Shown here: positions 30,582 through 58,914 of the stretch, in pieces
How the letters are laid out: the number at the start of each line of letters is the position of its first letter
How positions within the stretch are numbered: position 1 is the first letter of the stretch
Assembly (NCBI GenBank): GCA_016179965.1
Contig: JACPCF010000008.1
Coordinates: 9,601-73,600, forward strand
Origin: Candidatus Rokuibacteriota bacterium
GTDB taxonomy: Bacteria; Methylomirabilota; Methylomirabilia; Rokubacteriales; CSP1-6
DNA: 64,000 nt
Direction of reading: 5' to 3'
Program-made: the position numbers and the translations under genes
Notes under the pieces: model-generated
Seen by the model: the letters and a program-made list of their open reading frames with translations, nothing else
What the model was told of the DNA's origin: nothing
The model's database searches: none

Positions 30582-31195
30582 TCAGTCGTCGAGCTTGGCC
30601 TCCTTTCTCCGTGAGGGTCCTTTTAGCACAAGTCGGTGGGCGTTGTGAAGGAGGCGGTCGCAGATCGCATCGGCCAGGGTGGCGTCGGCCAGGTAGTTAT
30701 GCCACTGGGCCGGCGGGAGCTGGCTGGTGATGATGGTCGAGCGAGTGCCATAGCGATCCTCGAGGATCTCGAGCAGGTCGCGGCGCTCCGGGTCCTGCAC
30801 GGGGGCGAGGCCCCAGTCGTCGATCACGAGGACGTCGAGGCGGGCGAGCTTGCCGAGCAGGCGGATGTAGGTGCCATCGGCGCGGGCCAGGGTGAGCTCG
30901 TGGAAGAGGCGAGAGGCGCGGCGGTAGCCGGCGCGATAGCCCTTGCGGCACGCCTGATGTGCCAGGGCACACGCGATGAAGCTCTTCCCGACGCCGGTGG
31001 CGCCGACCAGGATCACGTTGTGGTGCTCAGCGACCCAGCGGCAGGTGGCGAGCTGGCGGACGACGGCCTTGTCGAGCTCGCGCCGGGCCGGGTAGTCGAT
31101 CGCCTCGAGACACGCCTGCGAGAGCTTGGCCTCCTGGAGGGCGCGGACCAGGCGCTTGGCCCGATGCGCCCGGGGATCTGCCCAAAGAGGCTCTG
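30582..31195 (-). pseudogene. IS21-family IstB helper ATPase, N-terminally truncated fragment
   Basis: Walker A LVGATGVGKS, Walker B DVLVIDDWG, C-terminal LLHNAHRLVLKG; upstream frame shows ...LVRALQEAKLSQACLEAIDYPARRELDKA matching IstB region 2; about 45 N-terminal residues missing. Confidence 0.7.
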
Positions 31196-50716: not shown

Positions 50717-51040
50717 ATGTGGAAGGTGGTCGCCCTGTTCGTGGTTCTCCTGCTGGGTTTCGCCCTCGGCATCTGGGGGACCTACCGCGCGGTCTATCCC
50801 GAGAAGGGGGTGCACCGTCTGACTGCGGTCTTCCAGTCGCGGGCGGGGGACACGGCGATCCTGGTCGGCCACGAGGCCATTCCCGCCCTCTCGATGGGCT
50901 CCATGGAACTGATGGCCTTCGACGTCGAGTCGAGGGCCTTGGTGGATCAGGCCGGGCTCAAGCCCGGTGACCGCGTCCGGCTCACCATCCGTCAGACGCG
51001 CGATCGCCTCCTGGTGGTGAAAATCGACAAGTTCCGGTGA
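50717..51040 (+). CDS. CusF-like periplasmic Cu(I)/Ag(I)-binding protein
   Basis: N-terminal TM/signal, then small beta-barrel pattern AILVGHEAIPALSMGSMELMAF...GDRVRLTI collinear with CusF (His, Met, Met ligands). Confidence 0.6.
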   Translation: MWKVVALFVVLLLGFALGIWGTYRAVYPEKGVHRLTAVFQSRAGDTAILVGHEAIPALSMGSMELMAFDVESRALVDQAGLKPGDRVRLTIRQTRDRLLVVKIDKFR

Positions 51041-51194
51041 CGCGTCAGAACCAGCGCCGCAGCCACCACTTCTCGAACCAGATCTTCCCCCAGTGCCAGA
51101 TCCTGCCGGGGGAACGCAGCCTGAGGACGGGAGCCGGGTCCGCGTAAAAGTTCCCCCCTGCGTAGGCGGCCACACCGTGGCCCATTTCCAGGAT

Positions 51195-52193
51195 TCAGTA
51201 GCCGTCGCCCTGGAAGGCCCGCCGGCCGCCGCGGCCGGTGATCTCGGCCGCGATGTTCGCGGCCACGGCCTCCGCCTCGTAGTGGGCGAAGACCCCGGCC
51301 TTGGGGAGCATCAGTCCGACCGGCAGCTTGATCGCCGTGACATCACCGAGGGCATAGACGCCCTCATGAGCGGTCTGGAGGGTCCCCTTGTCTACCGGCA
51401 CCCAGCCGGCCTCTCCCACCAGCCCGGACTCCTTGACCACAGGCGGGCAGCGGTGGGGCGGAATCGCCACGAGGAGGTCGTAGTCGGCCCGCTCCCCGTT
51501 CTCGAAGACCAGCTCCTGCCGCTCGGATTCCACCGCCTGGAGCTTGTGCTGAGGGTGGAAGTCGATGCCCTTGCTCGCGACCATGGCCTTCACGGCTTCT
51601 CCCATCGCCTTGCCCGCGACGGGCATCGGAAGAGGCTCGGGGGTGTAGATGTCCAGCCGAGCCCGCTCGCGGAGCCCCCGCTCCCGGAGGGAGGCCTCGA
51701 TCAGCATCGCCGCCTCGTAGGGGGCCCCGGGGCACTTGAAGGGCAGGCTTGCTACCGTCACCGTCACCCGGCCTTCCTTGAACGACGTGAGGGCCTGACG
51801 GAGCCCCAGCACGCCGTCCAGATCGTAGAGGTTATGGCCGCCCTCTGCCAGGCCGGGGACCGCCTCCGCCCGCCCCTCGGCCCCGAGGGCCACGATCAGG
51901 AAGTCGCCTGAGATCTGGCGCTTGTCGGTCCTGACGAGGCGCCGGGCCGGGTCGATCTCCCTGATCTCCTCGTGCACCACTTCGATTCCCTTCCGCTCCA
52001 GCCGGCTCAGGTCGCGGGTGATCTCCCGCGGCTCCCGCCATCCGAGCATCATCCAGAGAAAGGACGGGGTATAGACGTGCTGCGCCGCGCGGTCCACGAG
52101 GACGATCCGGTGCTTCCGGTCGAGGCTCCGCCTCAGCGTGTTGGCGGCCACCAGCCCTCCCACGCCCCCGCCGAGAATCACGATCGTCGCCAT
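51195..52193 (-). CDS. FAD-dependent pyridine-nucleotide-disulfide-family oxidoreductase, sulfide:quinone oxidoreductase-like
   Basis: Rossmann motif IVILGGGVGG at the N-terminus, second dinucleotide site, Cys-containing FKCPGAPYE segment, C-terminal GDV motif; 332-aa real CDS within a 524-aa ORF-track artefact. Confidence 0.7.
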   Translation of the reverse strand: MATIVILGGGVGGLVAANTLRRSLDRKHRIVLVDRAAQHVYTPSFLWMMLGWREPREITRDLSRLERKGIEVVHEEIREIDPARRLVRTDKRQISGDFLIVALGAEGRAEAVPGLAEGGHNLYDLDGVLGLRQALTSFKEGRVTVTVASLPFKCPGAPYEAAMLIEASLRERGLRERARLDIYTPEPLPMPVAGKAMGEAVKAMVASKGIDFHPQHKLQAVESERQELVFENGERADYDLLVAIPPHRCPPVVKESGLVGEAGWVPVDKGTLQTAHEGVYALGDVTAIKLPVGLMLPKAGVFAHYEAEAVAANIAAEITGRGGRRAFQGDGY

Positions 52194-52204: not shown

Positions 52205-52867
52205 TTACCCCCGTCGCCCCGTCACGGCCAGAAAGGTGGCCAGCCCGGGCGTCCACCGGGCCCCTGCTGTTTCCCAGCCTCGAAGATACCGCACCCCGCG
52301 ACGGCGGGAAACGGGCAAGAAGTGGACCGCCCCGCGCCACCGGAGATCGCGGAATCCCCCCTCCTCCAGCAGCCGCCTCAGGTCTCCGAGGCCCAGAAAG
52401 GCCGCGTGCCGCCAGACGGATCGGACGAAGTGTCGCTTCAGGCGGCGCCAGAGGGTCCAGAGCCCGGTCCGATTCAGGATCGCGACAAGGTCGAAGGCAC
52501 CTGCCCGGAAGGGCAGCGCGCCTCCGTCCGCTCGGACTAGCGCGAGGGCGATTCCCCCGCGCCGGGCCTTGGCGCGGGCGACCCGGAGCATCGGCTCGGA
52601 GACGTCCACGCCCACCACCCTGAAGCCCCGCTGGGCCAGCGCCAGGGCGTAGTTCCCCGTGCCGCAGGAGAGGTCGAGAGCCAGCGCGCCCGGCCTGGGC
52701 TCCAGCAGGGTGAAGATGGCGTTCTTCTCCGGCTGATCGACGAGCCGGCCGACGGGCGTCTCGTACCACAGGTCGTACGACGAGGCAAGCGCGTCGAACG
52801 CCGCAGCCGGCTCTGGACCCGGCTCGGCCCTACCACCCCCTTCCCGCGGGCTTCGTTCGGCCCTCAA
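52205..52867 (-). CDS. class I SAM-dependent methyltransferase (start uncertain)
   Basis: Motif I LDLSCGTGNYALALA, post-I VGVDVSEPML; the only in-frame start candidates downstream of the small upstream ORF are TTG/CTG. Confidence 0.55.
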   Translation of the reverse strand: MRAERSPREGGGRAEPGPEPAAAFDALASSYDLWYETPVGRLVDQPEKNAIFTLLEPRPGALALDLSCGTGNYALALAQRGFRVVGVDVSEPMLRVARAKARRGGIALALVRADGGALPFRAGAFDLVAILNRTGLWTLWRRLKRHFVRSVWRHAAFLGLGDLRRLLEEGGFRDLRWRGAVHFLPVSRRRGVRYLRGWETAGARWTPGLATFLAVTGRRG

Positions 52868-52920
52868 GGCCTTCCGCCCTTCTCTCTCACCCCTGCGGCC
52901 CGCAGGATGACCATGGACGG

Positions 52921-53074
52921 TCAGAAGTTCGTGAAGGCCGACTGGATCAGGTTCACCCCCATCAGGCCGGCCAGCCACAGCCATAGAGGGGTGTGGTAAA
53001 CGGCGAGGAGGACGCTGGCGAGGACTATGATCCCCCCCCAGCAGTCGGAGCCACTGCTCCATGTACAGCGTCAC
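52921..53074 (-). other. candidate about 50-aa small membrane protein (DUF2892-like end ...[12 protein letters not shown]) whose reading frame is broken at a G8 homopolymer
   Basis: Strong RBS AAAGGAGGTGA 7 nt before GTG 53074. N-terminal [14 protein letters not shown] runs into GGGGGGGG (~53022-53029), after which the +1 frame gives [36 protein letters not shown]. Confidence 0.3.
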
Positions 53075-53090: not shown

Positions 53091-54350
53091 TCAGAAGGCG
53101 TAGCGGACGACGGCGTAGAGGTTCGAGTTTCCCTCGAACTGGCCGAACTCGGCGCGGCGAGGGCCGCCGAAGAGGTTCAGGCCAAGGGCGGCCCACAGGG
53201 CATCCGTCACGTTGTATTTGACCTCGGGGTTCACGTAGAAGTCCCCCTCGTTGGGGCTTCCGAGGACGAACAGGCCGAGCCTCAGCGTCTGGTTCCAGAA
53301 GAGCTGGGTGAGCCGCGCCGTGAGGACATGGCGGATGGTCGGGCGGTTGGCCATCCCGGGCCCCCGGGTCGCCCGGTACGCGTCGTGGTCCTCCATGACG
53401 TCGCCGGCGTACTGGAGGCCCAGCGTCAGGTCCGGCGCCAGCTCCCGCTGGTATCCGGCCAGATACTTCCCCCGGGAGTTCTCGACGGCGGCGTTCCGCC
53501 CCGACCGGTCCCGCCGCGAGTCGTAATAGCCCCCCTCGAGGCTCACCACCCCGCCCAGCGCCGCCCCCTGGGCGCTCCAGCCGTAGACGTTGAGCGGCGG
53601 GAAGAAAAGGCGGAGGCGCGGGCCCGGCTCGACCTCCCCCGCCGGGGCGCGGTGGAACCCGCGGTAGGCGTAGAGCGACAGGTCCCAGCCCAGGAGGTTC
53701 CTGAAGAGCCTTCCCCCCACCTCCGGGCCTTCGGCGCCCGGCGAGGGGTCATCAGTGTTACGGCTCTCGATCGCGGCCATGGGGTCGTTGAAGCGCAGCC
53801 GTCCCCCTGCTTCGGGCAGCGTGTCGGCCTCGAAGCGGGGAACGAGCACGACCTGAAGCGACGTGCCGCCCCAGTGGCCGGTGGCCGAGAGCCCGTCCGA
53901 CCCTTTTTTCAGATATTCGAGCGGGAGGCCGGAGATGAAGGCCACCCAGTCCTTGGGGAAGACGTCGTTGATGAAGATCAGGTCGCCCACTCCCCAGGTG
54001 ATGATCTGCCGTCCCAGTCTGAGGTCCACGGCCGGAAATCGAAGGTCCAGGTAGCCTTCCCGCAGGTCGCCGTCCACCTCGCCCCCCACGGCATCGCCGA
54101 TCAGCTCGCCCTTGGCGACGAGCCCCCACCACTCGCCGCGCGGGGTCAGCTCGAGCCGCCCCCGCCCCTCGCCGAGGACGAACTCCTCCCGGCACGCGAG
54201 CCGCTGGGTTCGAGGGCAACGGTCGGGCTGGATCAGCCGGTAGGCGGACGCGGCCTGGACAAAGCCGTGGAGCGGGATCTCCTCCGCCGCCGCGGCCCCC
54301 CGGGCGACCAGGAGCGAGGCGAGCAGGAGGAGCCCGAACCGGCGCCTCAC
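53091..54350 (-). CDS. outer-membrane beta-barrel protein (DUF1302-like), third gene of the MMPL export cassette
   Basis: Signal peptide RRFGLLLLASLLVARGAAAA; alternating amphipathic beta-strand pattern; C-terminal aromatic signature ...YAVVRYAF. Confidence 0.7.
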   Translation of the reverse strand: MRRRFGLLLLASLLVARGAAAAEEIPLHGFVQAASAYRLIQPDRCPRTQRLACREEFVLGEGRGRLELTPRGEWWGLVAKGELIGDAVGGEVDGDLREGYLDLRFPAVDLRLGRQIITWGVGDLIFINDVFPKDWVAFISGLPLEYLKKGSDGLSATGHWGGTSLQVVLVPRFEADTLPEAGGRLRFNDPMAAIESRNTDDPSPGAEGPEVGGRLFRNLLGWDLSLYAYRGFHRAPAGEVEPGPRLRLFFPPLNVYGWSAQGAALGGVVSLEGGYYDSRRDRSGRNAAVENSRGKYLAGYQRELAPDLTLGLQYAGDVMEDHDAYRATRGPGMANRPTIRHVLTARLTQLFWNQTLRLGLFVLGSPNEGDFYVNPEVKYNVTDALWAALGLNLFGGPRRAEFGQFEGNSNLYAVVRYAF

Positions 54351-55165
54351 CGGGAGAGTTCGGCCGGCGGCGCCCGGAGCGCGCGCTCGCTGAAGAGGTC
54401 GGGGGAGAGCTTCTGGTTGTAGCGGACGTCGGCAAAGACGGCCTCCGTGAAGTGGCCGGTCTGGGTGTTCTTCATGACCCGTTTGGTGACCGTCCAGAAC
54501 CCCTGGATCTCCTTCAGCTCCTCGGCCGTGAAGACCCGCGCGAGCTCGCCGCGCCGGTCGTAGTACTCTTCCTTCAGCGGAAGCCACGTGGCCTTGTCGA
54601 TCCAGGACACCTTCCGAGTGAAGTCCACGCTGCCCGGGTCCTTCGGGACGCTCTCGACGACGGAGGCGGCGCGCTCGCCGACCTTCTCCCCCCGGAGCAG
54701 CTTGTGGGTGTCCTCCTCGGGCTCCCGGCCGGAGACGTCCTCGTAGGAGAAGTCGGAGCCCGCGAAGCTCGACCGCTTGTCGCTGGCGGCGATCCGGCGC
54801 ACCAGCTTGAGGGCCGGGACGTAGAGCCAGCGGTCGTCGTCCCTCCCCGGGTACTTCCAGACCAGGAATGTCATGTCGCGCACGTCGGGTGGGCGGTGGA
54901 AGTAGATGAAGTACCGCTGCTCGCCCCCGTCCTGGAGGTCCCGCCGTGACATGGTGAGCTCCCGGACCCTCTCCTTGCCGTCCCGCGACACGAGGCGCAT
55001 CGTCACGCGCGCCCGCATGTCCTCCCCGGGGTAGAACATGGCCAGGTGGGCCTTGGCCATGATCTCCTCGGCCGTGGGCTGCGCGGCGGCCGGCGCCACC
55101 GCAAGCACAGCGAGACCCGCCACCACTGCCACCCAACCGGCCCGCCGAAGGCCGAGGACCATCAT
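54347..55165 (-). CDS. LolA-like outer-membrane lipoprotein-sorting-fold protein (DUF1329-like)
   Basis: Signal peptide; LolA-like domain; ATGA-type overlaps on both sides with the MMPL and OMP genes. Confidence 0.7.
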   Translation of the reverse strand: MMVLGLRRAGWVAVVAGLAVLAVAPAAAQPTAEEIMAKAHLAMFYPGEDMRARVTMRLVSRDGKERVRELTMSRRDLQDGGEQRYFIYFHRPPDVRDMTFLVWKYPGRDDDRWLYVPALKLVRRIAASDKRSSFAGSDFSYEDVSGREPEEDTHKLLRGEKVGERAASVVESVPKDPGSVDFTRKVSWIDKATWLPLKEEYYDRRGELARVFTAEELKEIQGFWTVTKRVMKNTQTGHFTEAVFADVRYNQKLSPDLFSERALRAPPAELSR

Positions 55166-57480
55166 GTCGATCCTCCTCTGAACAGCCAGCCCTCCAGCAA
55201 GATGATCAGCGCGGGCAGATAGATGATCACCATCAGGGCGCTCAGCATCATCATGCTCACGATGAACGCGCCGACGGTAATGTACGGGGTCAGCGGGGCG
55301 AACATCATCACGGCGAAGGACGCTGCGAAGAGCACGGCGTTACGCATGATCCCTTTGCCGGGCCGTGCGGCCGTCCACAGCAATGACTCGGTGATGAGTT
55401 CGGAGTTCGGGGTGCCGACCGAACTTTCCGCCAGCCGTTGTTTGAACCTGCCGATGAAATGAATCGCAAAATCCACTGCCATGCCTAAAGAGAGACACGA
55501 AAGCACGGAGATGGGCATGTCAAACCTCTTGCCGCTGAATCCCACCACTCCGTAAATGAGGAGGATCGTGAACAGGAGCGGGACATAGCCGACGACGGCC
55601 CACTTGAAAGAACGGAAGTTGAAGATGAGGATGACGAATACCGCGATAAGGGCGGCAATGAACCCCTTGACCATATCCCACAGGACCTCGTCATTCCAGA
55701 CGAGATTGAAATACGCGATTCCTGCCGGCTTGAGCTCCAGCGGGAACGGATGCGCCTTCTTGTAGTCATCGACCGCTCGTATGACTTCCTCCATCGCCTG
55801 CGCGTCCCAGGTCTTGAGCTGAACCCATATGTTGGCTTGGCTAAAAGGATAATCAACCACATTGTTCAGGTCCGATGCTTTCGCGGACATGCTGAAGAGG
55901 AACAGGTATTGGCCGACAGCCTCCTTTGTCTCAGGGATCACGTCAAATCCGGCATCGTCGTCATGGAGGACGCGGTTGATCCTCTTCACGTAATCCGCGA
56001 CAGAGAAGGTTTTCCCCACAATGGGCAGTTTTTCCAGATGCCGCTGGAGGCTCTCGATGTATCTCATTGCTTCGGGGTTCTTGATGAAGTCCTCCTCCTT
56101 CGAGATCGCCACCACATAACCTGTGGACGTGCCGCCGAGCGCCCTGTTGATCTGGGTGTCCGCGATCCGTATCTCGCTCTGTTTCTTGAACCACTCCACC
56201 ATGTTATTGTTCACCACGATGTTTGTGACCCCGATGATCGCCACGACACACAGCAGAGCGCCCACGAGGACGGTCACTTGGGGCCGATGGGCGCCAAATC
56301 CGGCGAGCCCTCTCAGGAACCGCGATGCCTTGCTGAACGAGACATCCTCTCCCCGTGCTGCCTTCTCTATATTTTTCTCCTTCACGAAGGTAAACATCGC
56401 GGGAACGAAGCTGAAGCTCAAGATCCTCAGCGCCACCGTGCCGAATGCCACCAGACCTCCAAAGACCCTGACCGGAATGATGTTCATGAACAATAACACG
56501 GCGAAGCCTGCAGCCGTTGCCAGGGCCGTGTACCGCACAGGGCGGCCTACCGCATGCATGGTCTCTATGATTGCAACCTTCTTATCTTTGCGCTCCCTGT
56601 AGCGGAAGTAGAACTCATTGAAGATGTGAATGCTGTCTGTCGCGATGGCCATCAAGAAGACGGGAGCCATTGAGCTCATGATGTGAATAGGGAATCCGAA
56701 CGCTATCAAGAGCCCCATGCTCCAGACGATGCTGATCATCGCATCCATCATCAGCGTGATGGAGAGGAAAAGGTCCCTGAACATGAGATACCGGACCGCC
56801 AGCATCACCATGCCTGCGATCGGCGCAAAGATTGCCATGAGCCTGAACATCTCGGCGCCGAATGTGTCCCTCGCGACCGGATCGCCCGCGATGTAGTATT
56901 TCTCCGCGCCCTTCTCTTTCCTCACGATCTCCCGGATCTTGTCGGCCACCTCCTTGCCATTGGCCCCCTTTTCCAGAGGGACATAGATGGCCGTGGTCTT
57001 GCCATCCTTCGAGATGATGCGGTCGACGAAGAGGGGATTTCCGAAAAGCATCTTGCGGAGCTTCGCAACCTCTTGATCCGTCTTCGGGACCTCCGGCATG
57101 AGAGGGGCGACCGTCAAGATCCCGGACTCGGATGTCACGTTGGTGATGGTGGGGAAGCCGTTGACATCCTGGACGGCCGCTCCCTTGAGCTTGAGGATTG
57201 CGTCCGTGATACTGCTGATCCTCGCGAGGGTCTCGCGGTTGAGGACGCCTCTGTCATTCACGATCCCCAGGACGATCATGTCCTCGTAGAGCGCAAACGT
57301 CTTGTCCACTTCGTCGTTCCACACCCTGACATCGGATGTGGCCGGAAGCATGTTCTTGGGATTCGTATCGGTCTTCATCCTCGGGAACTGCGTCATAAAG
57401 GCGAGGGTGAAGATTATCGTCAGAGAGACAATCAACTTCGGATGTGCGACGGAAAATTCAACAAGTGAAAACTTCAGCAT
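55162..57480 (-). CDS. MMPL/RND-superfamily exporter (HpnN-like, two 6-TM bundles with periplasmic loops)
   Basis: 772 aa, TM1, large loop, TM2-6, repeated; MMPL-type sterol-sensing-like region. Confidence 0.85.
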   Translation of the reverse strand: MLKFSLVEFSVAHPKLIVSLTIIFTLAFMTQFPRMKTDTNPKNMLPATSDVRVWNDEVDKTFALYEDMIVLGIVNDRGVLNRETLARISSITDAILKLKGAAVQDVNGFPTITNVTSESGILTVAPLMPEVPKTDQEVAKLRKMLFGNPLFVDRIISKDGKTTAIYVPLEKGANGKEVADKIREIVRKEKGAEKYYIAGDPVARDTFGAEMFRLMAIFAPIAGMVMLAVRYLMFRDLFLSITLMMDAMISIVWSMGLLIAFGFPIHIMSSMAPVFLMAIATDSIHIFNEFYFRYRERKDKKVAIIETMHAVGRPVRYTALATAAGFAVLLFMNIIPVRVFGGLVAFGTVALRILSFSFVPAMFTFVKEKNIEKAARGEDVSFSKASRFLRGLAGFGAHRPQVTVLVGALLCVVAIIGVTNIVVNNNMVEWFKKQSEIRIADTQINRALGGTSTGYVVAISKEEDFIKNPEAMRYIESLQRHLEKLPIVGKTFSVADYVKRINRVLHDDDAGFDVIPETKEAVGQYLFLFSMSAKASDLNNVVDYPFSQANIWVQLKTWDAQAMEEVIRAVDDYKKAHPFPLELKPAGIAYFNLVWNDEVLWDMVKGFIAALIAVFVILIFNFRSFKWAVVGYVPLLFTILLIYGVVGFSGKRFDMPISVLSCLSLGMAVDFAIHFIGRFKQRLAESSVGTPNSELITESLLWTAARPGKGIMRNAVLFAASFAVMMFAPLTPYITVGAFIVSMMMLSALMVIIYLPALIILLEGWLFRGGST

Positions 57481-57481
57481 A

Positions 57482-57811
57482 TCAGAGCGCGCCGATCACG
57501 CGATCGTGGTCAACGGCCAGCAGCGCCGACACCCCGGCGTGACCGAGGGGAACCGCGGGCTCGCAGGGCCTGAGCCCGCGGGCGGCGAGATCCTCGTCGA
57601 GAACGAGCAACCGGGCCCCGCGCTCGAGGAGCCGTTCGAGCCGGGTCGCGGTCTCGCGGGGTAAGTGGTCGCCTGCTAGAAGCACCGCGTCCTGGAGGCA
57701 GCAGAGGGTGAGGACGTGCCCTTGGTCCACGAGAGACTCAACGATCGACAGCGCGCGCTGCCCAGCCGAAGACGCGGGAGAGCTCGATAGCACCACGAGG
57801 ATCGAGGCCAT
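57482..57811 (-). CDS. TusB/DsrH-like sulfur-relay subunit
   Basis: LTLCCLQDAV and LVLDEDLAARGL align with E. coli TusB LLLLQDGV and YALNEDLIARGL. Confidence 0.6.
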   Translation of the reverse strand: MASILVVLSSSPASSAGQRALSIVESLVDQGHVLTLCCLQDAVLLAGDHLPRETATRLERLLERGARLLVLDEDLAARGLRPCEPAVPLGHAGVSALLAVDHDRVIGAL

Positions 57812-57821
57812 GGCGTCCTCC

Positions 57822-58187
57822 TCAGAAGATCAGCGTGCGGTCGCAGCGGGCGAGGGCTCCCGCGATCTCCTCCAGCGACGACGCCCGGGTCCCCTGGATG
57901 AAGTCGCTGGCGCGGAGTCCCCGGACCTCGAGGGCTCCCTCGTCTACGAGCACGGCGGCCCGTCCGTTTCCCTTCCGGATGAACTCGGCCACGGCTTCTC
58001 CGAGACACGTCCATTCATCGGCCGGTGGCGACTGGCCAGGCAGCGCGGTGAGGACCGCATCTCCCGTCAAGGCCAGGACCACCTCCCACCCTTTCCCCAG
58101 GGCGCCCAGCGCATGGCGGAGGGCCTCGGCCGGCTGGATGCTCCCGTAGGGCGCGCGATCTACGAGGACGCAGAGCGACTTCGCCAC
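57822..58187 (-). CDS. TusC/DsrF-like sulfur-relay subunit
   Basis: 121 aa, DsrE/DsrF-fold pattern (LCVLVDRAPYG...VVLALTGDAV...AAVLVDEGALEVRGL). Confidence 0.6.
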   Translation of the reverse strand: MAKSLCVLVDRAPYGSIQPAEALRHALGALGKGWEVVLALTGDAVLTALPGQSPPADEWTCLGEAVAEFIRKGNGRAAVLVDEGALEVRGLRASDFIQGTRASSLEEIAGALARCDRTLIF

Positions 58188-58191
58188 GGCC

Positions 58192-58548
58192 CTACCCCCC
58201 GAAGGTCAGGACGGCGTGGCTCTCGTCGAGGTGAGCCAGCAGCCGCGAGAGCGAGCCGACGCGCGCGCCCTCCAGGAGATCCTCATCCGCGATTCCCCTG
58301 AATCGCAGGCAGGACCCTCAGAGGTCCACGGCCCCGCCGCGGGCGAGGAATGCCTGGGCGGCGCCGCCGACGTCGAAGACGGACGCCGCCTTCTGCTCCC
58401 TGACGAAGCCGTACACGCCGTCGCCGGTGGCGAAGATCGTGGGCCGGTGCCCGGCCTCGAGCGCCGCCGCGGCGAGCTTGAGCGCCGTGCCGGCTGCCTG
58501 GCCGGAGTAGGGGCTGGCGGTCAGGACGAAGGTCAGGCGCTTCTCCAT
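58192..58548 (-). CDS. TusD/DsrE-like sulfur-relay subunit with in-frame UGA at the catalytic-Cys position: candidate selenoprotein (Sec77)
   Basis: MEKRLTFVLTASPYSG...GGAVDL[UGA]GSCLRFRGIADEDLLEGARVG...AVLTFGG. The TGA (58318-58320, minus strand) aligns with Cys78 of TusD/DsrE (NIC|VAAALRRG). Reading through gives a full-length 118-aa TusD. A 9-bp stem / AGGG loop lies 9 nt downstream of the UGA. Confidence 0.6.
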
Positions 58549-58552
58549 CGCG

Positions 58553-58870
58553 TTAGCTCCGCGCGCCGCTCCGCCGGCTGCCGGCCGTGGCCGCTTTGAC
58601 CAGCCGCCGCCCCTCGGAGAGCTGCTCGAACAGCACCTCCCGCATGATGTCGAACGCGCGGAGGATCTTGGGGTTGGCCGCTTTGAGGATCGCCAGGTGC
58701 TGCGAGAGGTTCGGCATGCTGGTCCCGACCCGTCGCGCCAGCTCGGCCACGGCCATCTCCTGCTCCCGCAGCGCATTGAGGATCTTGAGCCGCGTGGGAT
58801 TGGACAGGATCTGGCAGACGCTCGCGTGCAGCTCGTAGATCCGGTCGTCGGTGTGCCTCGCTGGCTCCAC
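58553..58870 (-). CDS. ArsR/SmtB-family metalloregulatory transcription factor
   Basis: wHTH SNPTRLKILNALREQEMAVAELARRVGTSMPNLSQHLAILKAAN; first gene of the minus-strand arsR-tusDCB-MMPL operon. Confidence 0.8.
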   Translation of the reverse strand: MEPARHTDDRIYELHASVCQILSNPTRLKILNALREQEMAVAELARRVGTSMPNLSQHLAILKAANPKILRAFDIMREVLFEQLSEGRRLVKAATAGSRRSGARS

Positions 58871-58914
58871 GGTTCAGTATTTAAGCATGTTCGAAAGTAT
58901 AGATCAAGTCGAAT

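Follow-up and report, generated by a model that had tools for sequence, protein, structure and literature searches.

A 64,000-nt stretch of a Candidatus Rokuibacteriota bacterium contig (JACPCF010000008.1, positions 9,601 to 73,600, assembly GCA_016179965.1), referred to here as the window, contains ten co-directional minus-strand genes that run from window position 58870 to 51027 and were delimited from open reading frames (ORFs), Pfam matches and comparison with relatives. From the 5′ end, they encode an ArsR-family regulator, a YchN/DsrE-like protein with an in-frame UGA codon, DsrF-like and DsrH-like proteins, an MMPL/HAE3 pump, a LolA-like protein, an outer-membrane β-barrel, a YgaP-like protein, a methyltransferase, and a flavoprotein of the sulfide:quinone oxidoreductase (SQR) type. 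Each of these components belongs to a known kind. An earlier note on this DNA had described the first seven genes, from 58870 to 53091, as a single operon; all seven minus-strand ORFs were recovered with the same boundaries and they do form one co-directional unit, which three further genes on the same strand extend to 51027.

The junctions of the first seven genes consist of gaps of 4, 4, 10, and 1 nt, followed by an ATGA overlap between the MMPL and LolA-like genes and a GTGA overlap between the LolA-like and barrel genes. The tight spacing reported earlier therefore stands, although two details of its description as 1-5 nt gaps or ATGA overlaps do not, the dsrF-dsrH gap being 10 nt and the last overlap being GTGA; the dsrH-pump junction is a single nucleotide. 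Beyond the barrel gene, a gap of 16 nt leads to the small YgaP-like gene, a TTGA overlap joins this to the methyltransferase gene, and a gap of 11 nt precedes the SQR-type gene, which is itself preceded by AAGGAG. The 3′ end of the operon is convergent with a CusF-like gene. No terminator-like site was found at any junction of the seven-gene block; the only two matches both lie inside the MMPL coding region, fewer than the mean of 3.5 obtained with shuffled sequence, and a scan for the sigma-70 consensus found no promoter. The genes are one tightly coupled co-directional block, and the arrangement of the first seven is far beyond chance.

Gene order in related genomes

The pump has 1674 homologues at E ≤ 1e-20, of which the best 120 are 75-96% identical to it, and its relatives occur in 333 species-level genomes. 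Conservation was counted over the best 80 of these 333 pump loci (one genome per species, pump 71-89% identical, all from metagenome-assembled genomes), onto which the window proteins were mapped by tblastn; denominators of 57 and 56 refer to the loci with enough sequence, and 39 to those with both flanks. The lineages of the best 80 are Methylomirabilota/Rokubacteria, Nitrospirota/Thermodesulfovibrionia, Deltaproteobacteria, Omnitrophota, Elusimicrobia, Ignavibacteriae, and Acidobacteriota, and the Nitrospirota carriers include the manganese-oxidizing MnB_6 genome. A LolA-like gene lies downstream of the pump gene in every one of 57 loci and a barrel gene in 55 of them. The UGA-containing dsrE together with dsrF lies upstream of the pump gene on the same strand in 40/56 loci, and an SQR-like gene is present in 43/56. 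With both flanks available, dsrE, dsrF, the LolA-like gene, and the barrel gene occur together in 27 of 39 loci, and 33 of the 39 have the UGA-containing dsrE and/or the SQR-like gene, the partners all being on the strand of the pump gene.

The order arsR-dsrE-dsrF-dsrH-pump-LolA-barrel is reproduced in the Rokubacteria loci L007, L010, L012, L013, L086, and L087, and L008, L009, and L011 likewise retain the dsrH/pump junction. An assembly chimera at this junction was rejected, because the junction is found in nine independent assemblies (L007-L013, L086, L087). Since the Rokubacteria loci repeat both order and junction, the juxtaposition is neither an assembly artefact nor unique; the comparison of gene order in related genomes that the earlier note had proposed shows the link between relay and exporter recurring across phyla, which removes its concern about a chimera or a one-off. 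Loci L057, L078, L080, and L083 have no DsrE(U)FH genes, yet ArsR, SQR-like, and methyltransferase genes flank the pump gene there. Genes inserted in related loci encode Sulf_transp (YeeE-like), rhodanese, TusA, CCG/HdrD-like, and GcvH-like proteins, TusA being found near the cluster in L004 only.

The recurrence of the SQR-like gene strengthens the reading of the operon as a sulfur system, one of those offered by the earlier note, which had also drawn on the nearby CusF-like and cytochrome c genes. Neither of these two genes is a conserved neighbor: CusF is found in 0/87 related loci and the cytochrome c gene only in the two closest relatives. In a Geobacteraceae contig (L002, 13176-15049), the pump, LolA-like, and barrel genes are followed by a Cys-type DsrE gene, a gene matching TsoX (PF26315), and two methyltransferase genes. 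TsoX is a selenoprotein of the published “Tso” neighborhood, and the arrangement in L002 suggests that the cluster may be connected with that system.

Genes with in-frame UGA codons

Family assignments were made by comparing Pfam and NCBIfam (release 20) profile scores with their curated cut-offs. The YchN/DsrE-like gene (58192..58548, minus strand; 118 amino acids; Pfam DsrE 70.7 bits) has an in-frame UGA at 58320-58318, within an L-U-G-S-C motif in which U is selenocysteine (Sec). All 50 cluster orthologs, including those with identity as low as 31%, have TGA at this position, followed by conserved sequence, and U77 and C80 (L-U-x-x-C) are invariant in the orthologs. A hairpin resembling a selenocysteine insertion sequence (SECIS), with a 9-bp stem and an AGGG loop, begins 10 nt after the UGA (58287..58308, minus strand). 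In every lineage, a hairpin starts 10-17 nt past the UGA with stems that differ (GCGAUUC/GAAUCGC, UUUCGCC/GGCGAAA, CCGCG/UGCGG), and five of the six consensus pairs show double-sided changes. The comparative evidence identifies the UGA as a real Sec codon; the earlier note had proposed Sec in what it called tusD, and the 50 TGA codons and the compensatory changes in the hairpin bear this out. Cys versions at these loci are paralogues only, comprising additional copies immediately before DsrE(U), a DsrF match, and divergent copies in L002/L003 and L072, loci that are without DsrE(U).

The next two genes encode a DsrF-like subunit with the DsrE fold (57822..58187, minus strand; 121 amino acids; Pfam DsrE 50.8 bits) and a DsrH-like subunit (57482..57811, minus strand; 109 amino acids; Pfam DsrH 24.0 bits, just below the cut-off of 24.4). 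C37 of the DsrH-like subunit is invariant in nine orthologs, and the gene is called in L001 and L004. The best scores of the three proteins against NCBIfam Tus/Dsr equivalogs are 22.9-27.1, 19.8, and 24.2 bits (cut-offs 89-94, 94, and 49), and the closest solved relative is YchN. The names tusD, tusC, and tusB used previously are thus not supported for any of the three, and “tusBCD” describes a resemblance at the level of the fold, not membership. As in the DsrEFH/TusBCD heterohexamers, three successive genes have the DsrE, DsrE, and (borderline) DsrH folds, and the reactive residue of the first subunit aligns with TusD Cys78 as well as with the first Cys of the CxxC motif of E. coli YchN; unlike in those heterohexamers, that position is here Sec, a chemically analogous residue, and is accompanied by an invariant Cys (UxxC, compare the CxxC of YchN). 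The DsrE-like protein (UxxC, PF02635) is a known selenoprotein family, listed in the Sargasso Sea selenoproteome (PMC1088965) and also in PMC13188914, and the window protein agrees with it in its Pfam family, its UxxC motif, and its downstream bacterial SECIS-type hairpin. The two papers give neither a function nor a gene neighborhood for the family, whereas in this operon the family supplies one of three subunits whose genes are linked to an exporter.

Beyond the DsrE-like gene, sequence comparison adds two more genes that read UGA as Sec, those for the SQR-type and YgaP-like proteins, each with Sec/Cys pairs among relatives, and so brings to three the number of such genes in the operon. The YgaP-like gene (52864..53074, minus strand) encodes a small two-helix membrane protein of about 69 amino acids with an F-U-P motif, the UGA being at 52923-52921. 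Its reading frame is broken by an extra G in a run of eight (53039-53032); removal of one G yields a 69-residue protein that scores 43.6 bits against PF11127 (cut-off 25.3), and its N-terminus matches a gene of 50 amino acids called in the closest relatives. The extra G may be a sequencing error in the homopolymer, or the frameshift may be real and perhaps phase-variable; a frame break is also present in the L013 copy of the gene. TGA is found at the Cys-Pro motif of the family in the window, L006, L013, L086 (6219-6428), L087, and the Nitrospirae locus L067 (12818-13010), and ten Nitrospirota loci have the Cys form (FTNWCP). A SECIS-like hairpin (CCUGCGG-GCC-CCGCAGG, 52891..52907, minus strand) is kept in L086 and L006, and in L067 the hairpin is equally distant but is built on another stem. 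The 2026 selenoproteome review does not include a YgaP-like selenoprotein, NCBIfam has no model for one, and it may represent an unlisted selenoprotein family.

A 289-amino acid ORF (52205..53074) spanning this region was considered as one gene and rejected: because the G8 run breaks the frame of the small gene and a separate methyltransferase start follows, it is a frameshift fusion of the 5′ end of the small gene with the methyltransferase gene. The latter (52205..52867, minus strand, TTG start) encodes a class I S-adenosylmethionine-dependent methyltransferase of 220 amino acids. It scores 65.4 bits against Methyltransf_25 and 47.8 bits against Ubie_methyltran, and its NCBIfam equivalog scores are all below the cut-offs.

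The last gene (51027..52193, minus strand) encodes a Type III SQR-like flavoprotein of 382 amino acids, with a UGA (51197-51195) at the position of the C-terminal redox Cys. It has a motif for binding flavin adenine dinucleotide at its very start, no signal peptide, and a Trp-rich C-terminal helix, and it retains Cys154 and Sec333. The UGA position is Cys in 60/60 locus homologues. The protein database contains about 36 clusters of 332 amino acids (33 of them exactly 332), 67-100% identical, that end at the UGA, and Cys forms of 382-384 amino acids. In L088 (10001-11149) and L089 (2509-3657), the SQR gene has the TGA followed by a conserved 49-residue extension. Public records split the Sec form into a 332-amino acid protein and a separate 46-amino acid “gene”. 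The possibility that the UGA is a nonsense mutation was rejected on the evidence of the recurrent 332-amino acid clusters and the conserved read-through sequence. The SECIS-like hairpin of this gene (GGCCAC-GGU-GUGGCC, 51168..51182, minus strand) is kept in L088 and L089 as GGCCAC-GGN-GUGGCC; its folding energy alone is not unusual (z = 0.28). The Type III SQR selenoprotein is an already listed family, with UGA likewise at the C-terminal redox Cys; the H-G-Y-U of L089 fits its HxxU motif, whereas the window protein has D-G-Y-U. The best NCBIfam match, NF049943 (Type III SQR, selenoprotein subtype), gives 248.5 bits against a cut-off of 525, which sets the window protein apart in a clade that is distinct, though related. 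Elsewhere in Rokubacteria, the Sec form of SQR is encoded away from the pump cluster.

Exporter genes and regulator

The MMPL/HAE3-type RND inner-membrane pump (55162..57480, minus strand) has 772 amino acids and matches Pfam MMPL (PF03176, 103.9 bits) in two stretches. Its best NCBIfam match, over the full length (residues 17-761), is the HAE3 model TIGR00921, with 178.9 bits against a cut-off of 351.9. The Asp motifs ATDSIH and AVDFAIH are present, one in each transmembrane bundle. In an AlphaFold2 model of moderate confidence (predicted local distance difference test score, pLDDT, 66.9), the pump has the RND fold with two periplasmic domains and two six-helix bundles. Comparison by Foldseek matched this model to MmpL4, MmpL5, MmpL3, NCR1/NPC1, and HpnN with probability 1.00 and template modeling scores of 0.6-0.7; AcrB and CmeB ranked lower, and no CusA-type metal pump was among the top 50. 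The modeled fold is thus of the lipid-type RND class, rather than that of a metal or drug pump.

The LolA-like (TP_0789-like) protein (54347..55165, minus strand; 272 amino acids) is a soluble periplasmic protein matching PF17131 (215 bits) and DUF1329 (PF07044, 45.4 bits). Its signal peptide is cleavable and ends AAA-Q, with no lipobox Cys, and it matches the solved LolA-superfamily proteins PDB 9tp6, 4z48, and 3bk5 with E values of 1e-43 to 1e-35. The third exporter gene (53091..54350, minus strand) encodes a 419-amino acid protein with a signal peptide and the C-terminal sequence RYAF; its predicted model is an outer-membrane β-barrel of the monomeric 18-strand channel type. The trio had been described as MMPL/LolA-like/DUF1302-like, and the first two of these assignments hold; the barrel is just weakly DUF1302-like, scoring 16.8 bits against PF06980 (cut-off 23.2), and some of its homologues carry precomputed PF06980 or PF14052 matches. 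PDB sequence searches gave no match for the pump or the barrel, and NCBIfam has no specific model for DsrE(U), the LolA-like protein, the barrel, or the small YgaP-like protein.

The only characterized precedent for this exporter build is AmeABCD of Castellaniella defragrans, an exporter of apolar monoterpenes consisting of the HAE3 RND protein AmeD, the DUF1302 protein AmeA, the DUF1329/LolA-superfamily protein AmeB, and AmeC (PMC6394551). Both systems combine an HAE3-type pump with a LolA-superfamily periplasmic protein and an outer-membrane barrel, which replace the membrane-fusion protein and TolC duct, and the cargo of AmeABCD is an uncharged hydrophobe (PMC6394551). They differ in that an AmeC (COG4447) homologue is absent from the window operon and from the gene tables of L001-L004, L086, and L087, in the size of the barrel (419 versus 605 amino acids in AmeABCD) and carrier (272 versus 451), and in their partners, which are terpene catabolism proteins for AmeABCD, and sulfur and selenium proteins here. 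Across phyla, the pump is far better conserved than its partners: its median identity is 76%, and the corresponding values are 55% (carrier), 41% (barrel), 37% (DsrE(U)), and 29% (SQR-like protein). The pump gene has a GC content of 0.56 and a third-position GC content (GC3) of 0.78, against a GC3 of 0.91-0.94 in the adjacent carrier, barrel, and arsR genes, in a genome of 70% GC. The high identity and low GC3 of the pump gene could reflect strong constraint, more recent exchange of the gene, or both.

The first gene of the operon (58553..58870, minus strand) encodes an ArsR/SmtB-family regulator of 105 amino acids, with 51.9 bits against Pfam HTH_5 and 59.6 bits against NCBIfam HTH_metalloreg (cut-off 55). 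A 21-nt box, ACTTTCGAAyATGCTTAAATA (58878..58898, minus strand), is kept in five otherwise diverged upstream regions (window, L086, L007, L010, and L013) and is a candidate promoter -10 element and operator. The box ends approximately 8 nt 5′ of the arsR start codon, and because no Shine-Dalgarno sequence is visible, arsR may be leaderless. Relative to the 91%-identical L086 and L087, the window arsR gene has an in-frame 51-bp deletion at 58679/58678, which takes out 17 residues (RHVVLTRREGVTIYYRI) that form the β-wing of the winged helix. Having lost the wing, the window repressor may no longer function, and expression of the operon may be constitutive.

The alignment of loci L017-L083 shows that the ArsR protein of most lineages has two conserved Cys residues, in α1 (H-A-x-x-C) and α5 (A-C-x-L-M); Rokubacteria keep only the α1 Cys, the α5 position being Phe, and the window protein has a single Cys, C19, in α1. 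As in the bacterial operons for sulfide detoxification that persulfide-sensing repressors of the SqrR/BigR type control, an ArsR-family repressor stands beside an SQR-type gene and sulfurtransferase-like proteins. The differences are that the conserved Cys residues lie here in other helices (α1 and α5 in most lineages, α1 only in the window), and that an envelope exporter is present instead of a persulfide dioxygenase. SqrR C41 and C107 coincide with neither ArsR Cys position, judging from the offsets of match coordinates and not from a residue-level alignment. In the Nitrospirota locus L001 (10935-13525) and in the closest Rokubacteria, L086 (6548-9599) and L087 (6543-9591), the genes after the barrel gene encode a Phosphonate-bd-type binding protein, an sCache/HAMP histidine kinase, and a response regulator. 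This set is not in the window, and it may constitute a second regulatory layer.

The remainder of the window consists of housekeeping genes. Rfam and tRNA scans of the window found no known RNA family and no tRNA, and therefore no tRNA-Sec; selA, selB, and selD were likewise not found in the window, nor were genes for TusA, TusE, or DsrC, and the rest of the window holds no other sulfur genes. An IstB_IS21 ATPase fragment (30582-31016, minus strand; 144 amino acids) that covers just positions 95-236 of the profile is located in a region of reduced GC content (22-34 kb; 0.62-0.65, compared with about 0.70) and is likely a mobile-element remnant.

A possible route for zero-valent sulfur

We propose, with a probability of a little under one-half (about 0.45), that the operon is a module that handles sulfide or zero-valent sulfur and is linked to an exporter carrying a hydrophobic product across the envelope. 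The gene order, its recurrence across phyla, the three UGA-Sec genes, and the fold classes of pump, carrier, and barrel were computed, and it is from these that we infer every chemical step. The SQR-type flavoprotein, which the lack of a signal peptide and the Trp-rich C-terminal helix would place on the cytoplasmic face of the membrane, would oxidize sulfide with quinone as acceptor and build sulfane sulfur on Cys154/Sec333. Sulfur would then move to Sec77 of DsrE(U), within a DsrE(U)-DsrF-DsrH complex, as a seleno-persulfide that Cys80 would resolve, and the YgaP-like protein would present its Sec/Cys-Pro motif at the membrane. A hydrophobic species (perhaps S8 or a long polysulfane, or a methylated polysulfane in operons that include the methyltransferase) would partition into the membrane, from which the proton-driven MMPL/HAE3 pump would extract it and pass it to the LolA-like carrier and out via the 18-strand barrel. 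The ArsR-family protein would repress the operon until a sulfur signal modifies its cysteine or cysteines. A stricter version, in which the Sec-based relay itself loads S0 or polysulfane into the HAE3 pump, and from there into the LolA-like protein and barrel as a dedicated system of zero-valent sulfur export, is doubtful, if quite conceivable.

Several observations weigh against the sulfur-export proposal, in which a sulfur species is a putative cargo of the pump. Six of the 39 well-flanked loci have the trio but lack both DsrE(U) and an SQR-like gene nearby, the methyltransferase is found in just 12 of 39 related loci, and in L086, L087, and the L007 genome, the SQR(U) gene is elsewhere or is absent from the locus. 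UxxC is equally compatible with a reductase instead of a carrier, the pump model has moderate confidence (pLDDT 66.9), and the regulator is without the α2/α5 Cys pair of SqrR/BigR, scoring 34.3 bits against the BigR equivalog NF040642 (cut-off 155).

Export of an envelope lipid or another hydrophobic constituent (for example, a hopanoid-like lipid, quinone, or sulfolipid) would have the trio share a regulator with the sulfur relay, not a substrate, and co-regulation would then arise because sulfide stress calls for outer-membrane remodeling. The structural neighbors of the pump are the lipid transporters MmpL3/4/5, HpnN, and NPC1, LolA-superfamily proteins carry lipid moieties, and the median identity of the pump, 76% against 29-55% for its partners, would fit a universal, lipid-like cargo; six of the 39 loci have the trio without DsrE(U) or SQR. 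However, none of the loci examined has lipid-biosynthesis genes beside the trio, whose recurrent partners are confined to ArsR and genes related to sulfur, and the 1-nt dsrH-pump junction suggests coupled expression. We regard both lipid export and its explanation by membrane remodeling as rather unlikely. The direction of transport could also be inward, or both ways, with the barrel and LolA-like protein capturing external S0 or polysulfane for the cytoplasmic Sec relay, for disproportionation, respiration, or assimilation. Many of the carriers are Thermodesulfovibrionia/Nitrospirota and Deltaproteobacteria from anoxic groundwater, such loci also hold YeeE-like Sulf_transp, rhodanese, TusA, and HdrD-like genes, and some RND relatives, NPC1 among them, transport their cargo toward the membrane. 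What makes uptake improbable is that the SQR-type enzyme produces S0 and does not consume it, that the characterized bacterial relatives checked for direction, AmeABCD and HpnN, export outward or to the periplasm, and that a review (PMC6463170) describes the MmpL proteins as exporters of hydrophobic substrates.

The presence of three selenoproteins in a single operon raises the question of whether selenium itself is the substrate, with the SQR-type enzyme oxidizing selenide, the Sec/Cys relay carrying selenium, the methyltransferase methylating it, and the trio expelling Se0 or organoselenium. A preprint (bioRxiv 10.1101/2023.04.13.535674) reports that human SQOR oxidizes selenide, and the L002 cluster adjoins a TsoX-type selenoprotein gene and two methyltransferase genes. 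Yet Sec in a catalyst is uninformative on its substrate, Cys forms of SQR and of the small protein are common, the accessory genes of related loci are classical sulfur-trafficking genes, and the window is without selD, selA, and selB; the odds of a selenium module appear to be low. The least supported role, and a very improbable one, is efflux of a thiophilic metal or arsenic, which ArsR would sense, the Sec/Cys proteins would chelate, and the RND pump would expel. The regulator reaches the threshold of the NCBIfam ArsR/SmtB metalloregulator subfamily, a CusF-like gene adjoins the operon, and Sec and Cys are good soft-metal ligands; against this, the CusF-like gene is convergent and has no counterpart in the 87 related loci, the pump resembles lipid RNDs with no CusA-type pump in its top 50 fold matches, there is no membrane-fusion protein or TolC-type duct, and the methyltransferase has no ArsM-level match. 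The earlier suggestion of an export route for sulfur, selenium, or a thiophilic metal therefore survives best in its sulfur part, which gains from the recurrence of the SQR-like gene, and the lipid-type fold of the pump weighs against its metal part.

Full-text literature searches, NCBIfam scans, and selenoprotein papers yielded no description of the combination of relay and exporter, in agreement with the earlier statement that it is not a described system; the conserved coupling of a Sec relay and an SQR-type protein to an HAE3/LolA-like/barrel exporter appears, provisionally, to be undescribed. In databases, the parts of the operon are annotated just as “MMPL family transporter”, “hypothetical protein”, or truncated oxidoreductases, and public gene calls cut three of the genes at UGA. 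The long-listed, functionless DsrE-like (UxxC) selenoprotein family gains a defined genetic context, and the YgaP-like protein is a further, small membrane selenoprotein that the 2026 selenoproteome review does not include.

We know of no established mechanism for moving zero-valent sulfur across the Gram-negative envelope, and full-text literature searches found none for its crossing. The operon provides a testable candidate for how hydrophobic zero-valent sulfur crosses that envelope. The 333 genomes with relatives of the pump come from groundwater and sediment lineages, and this cluster is the setting of the pump at the loci that were examined. If the proposed export of zero-valent sulfur is true, the pump would be the first RND system with an inorganic hydrophobic cargo, and the operon would explain for the first time, in molecular terms, how S0 formed on the cytoplasmic side leaves the cell.

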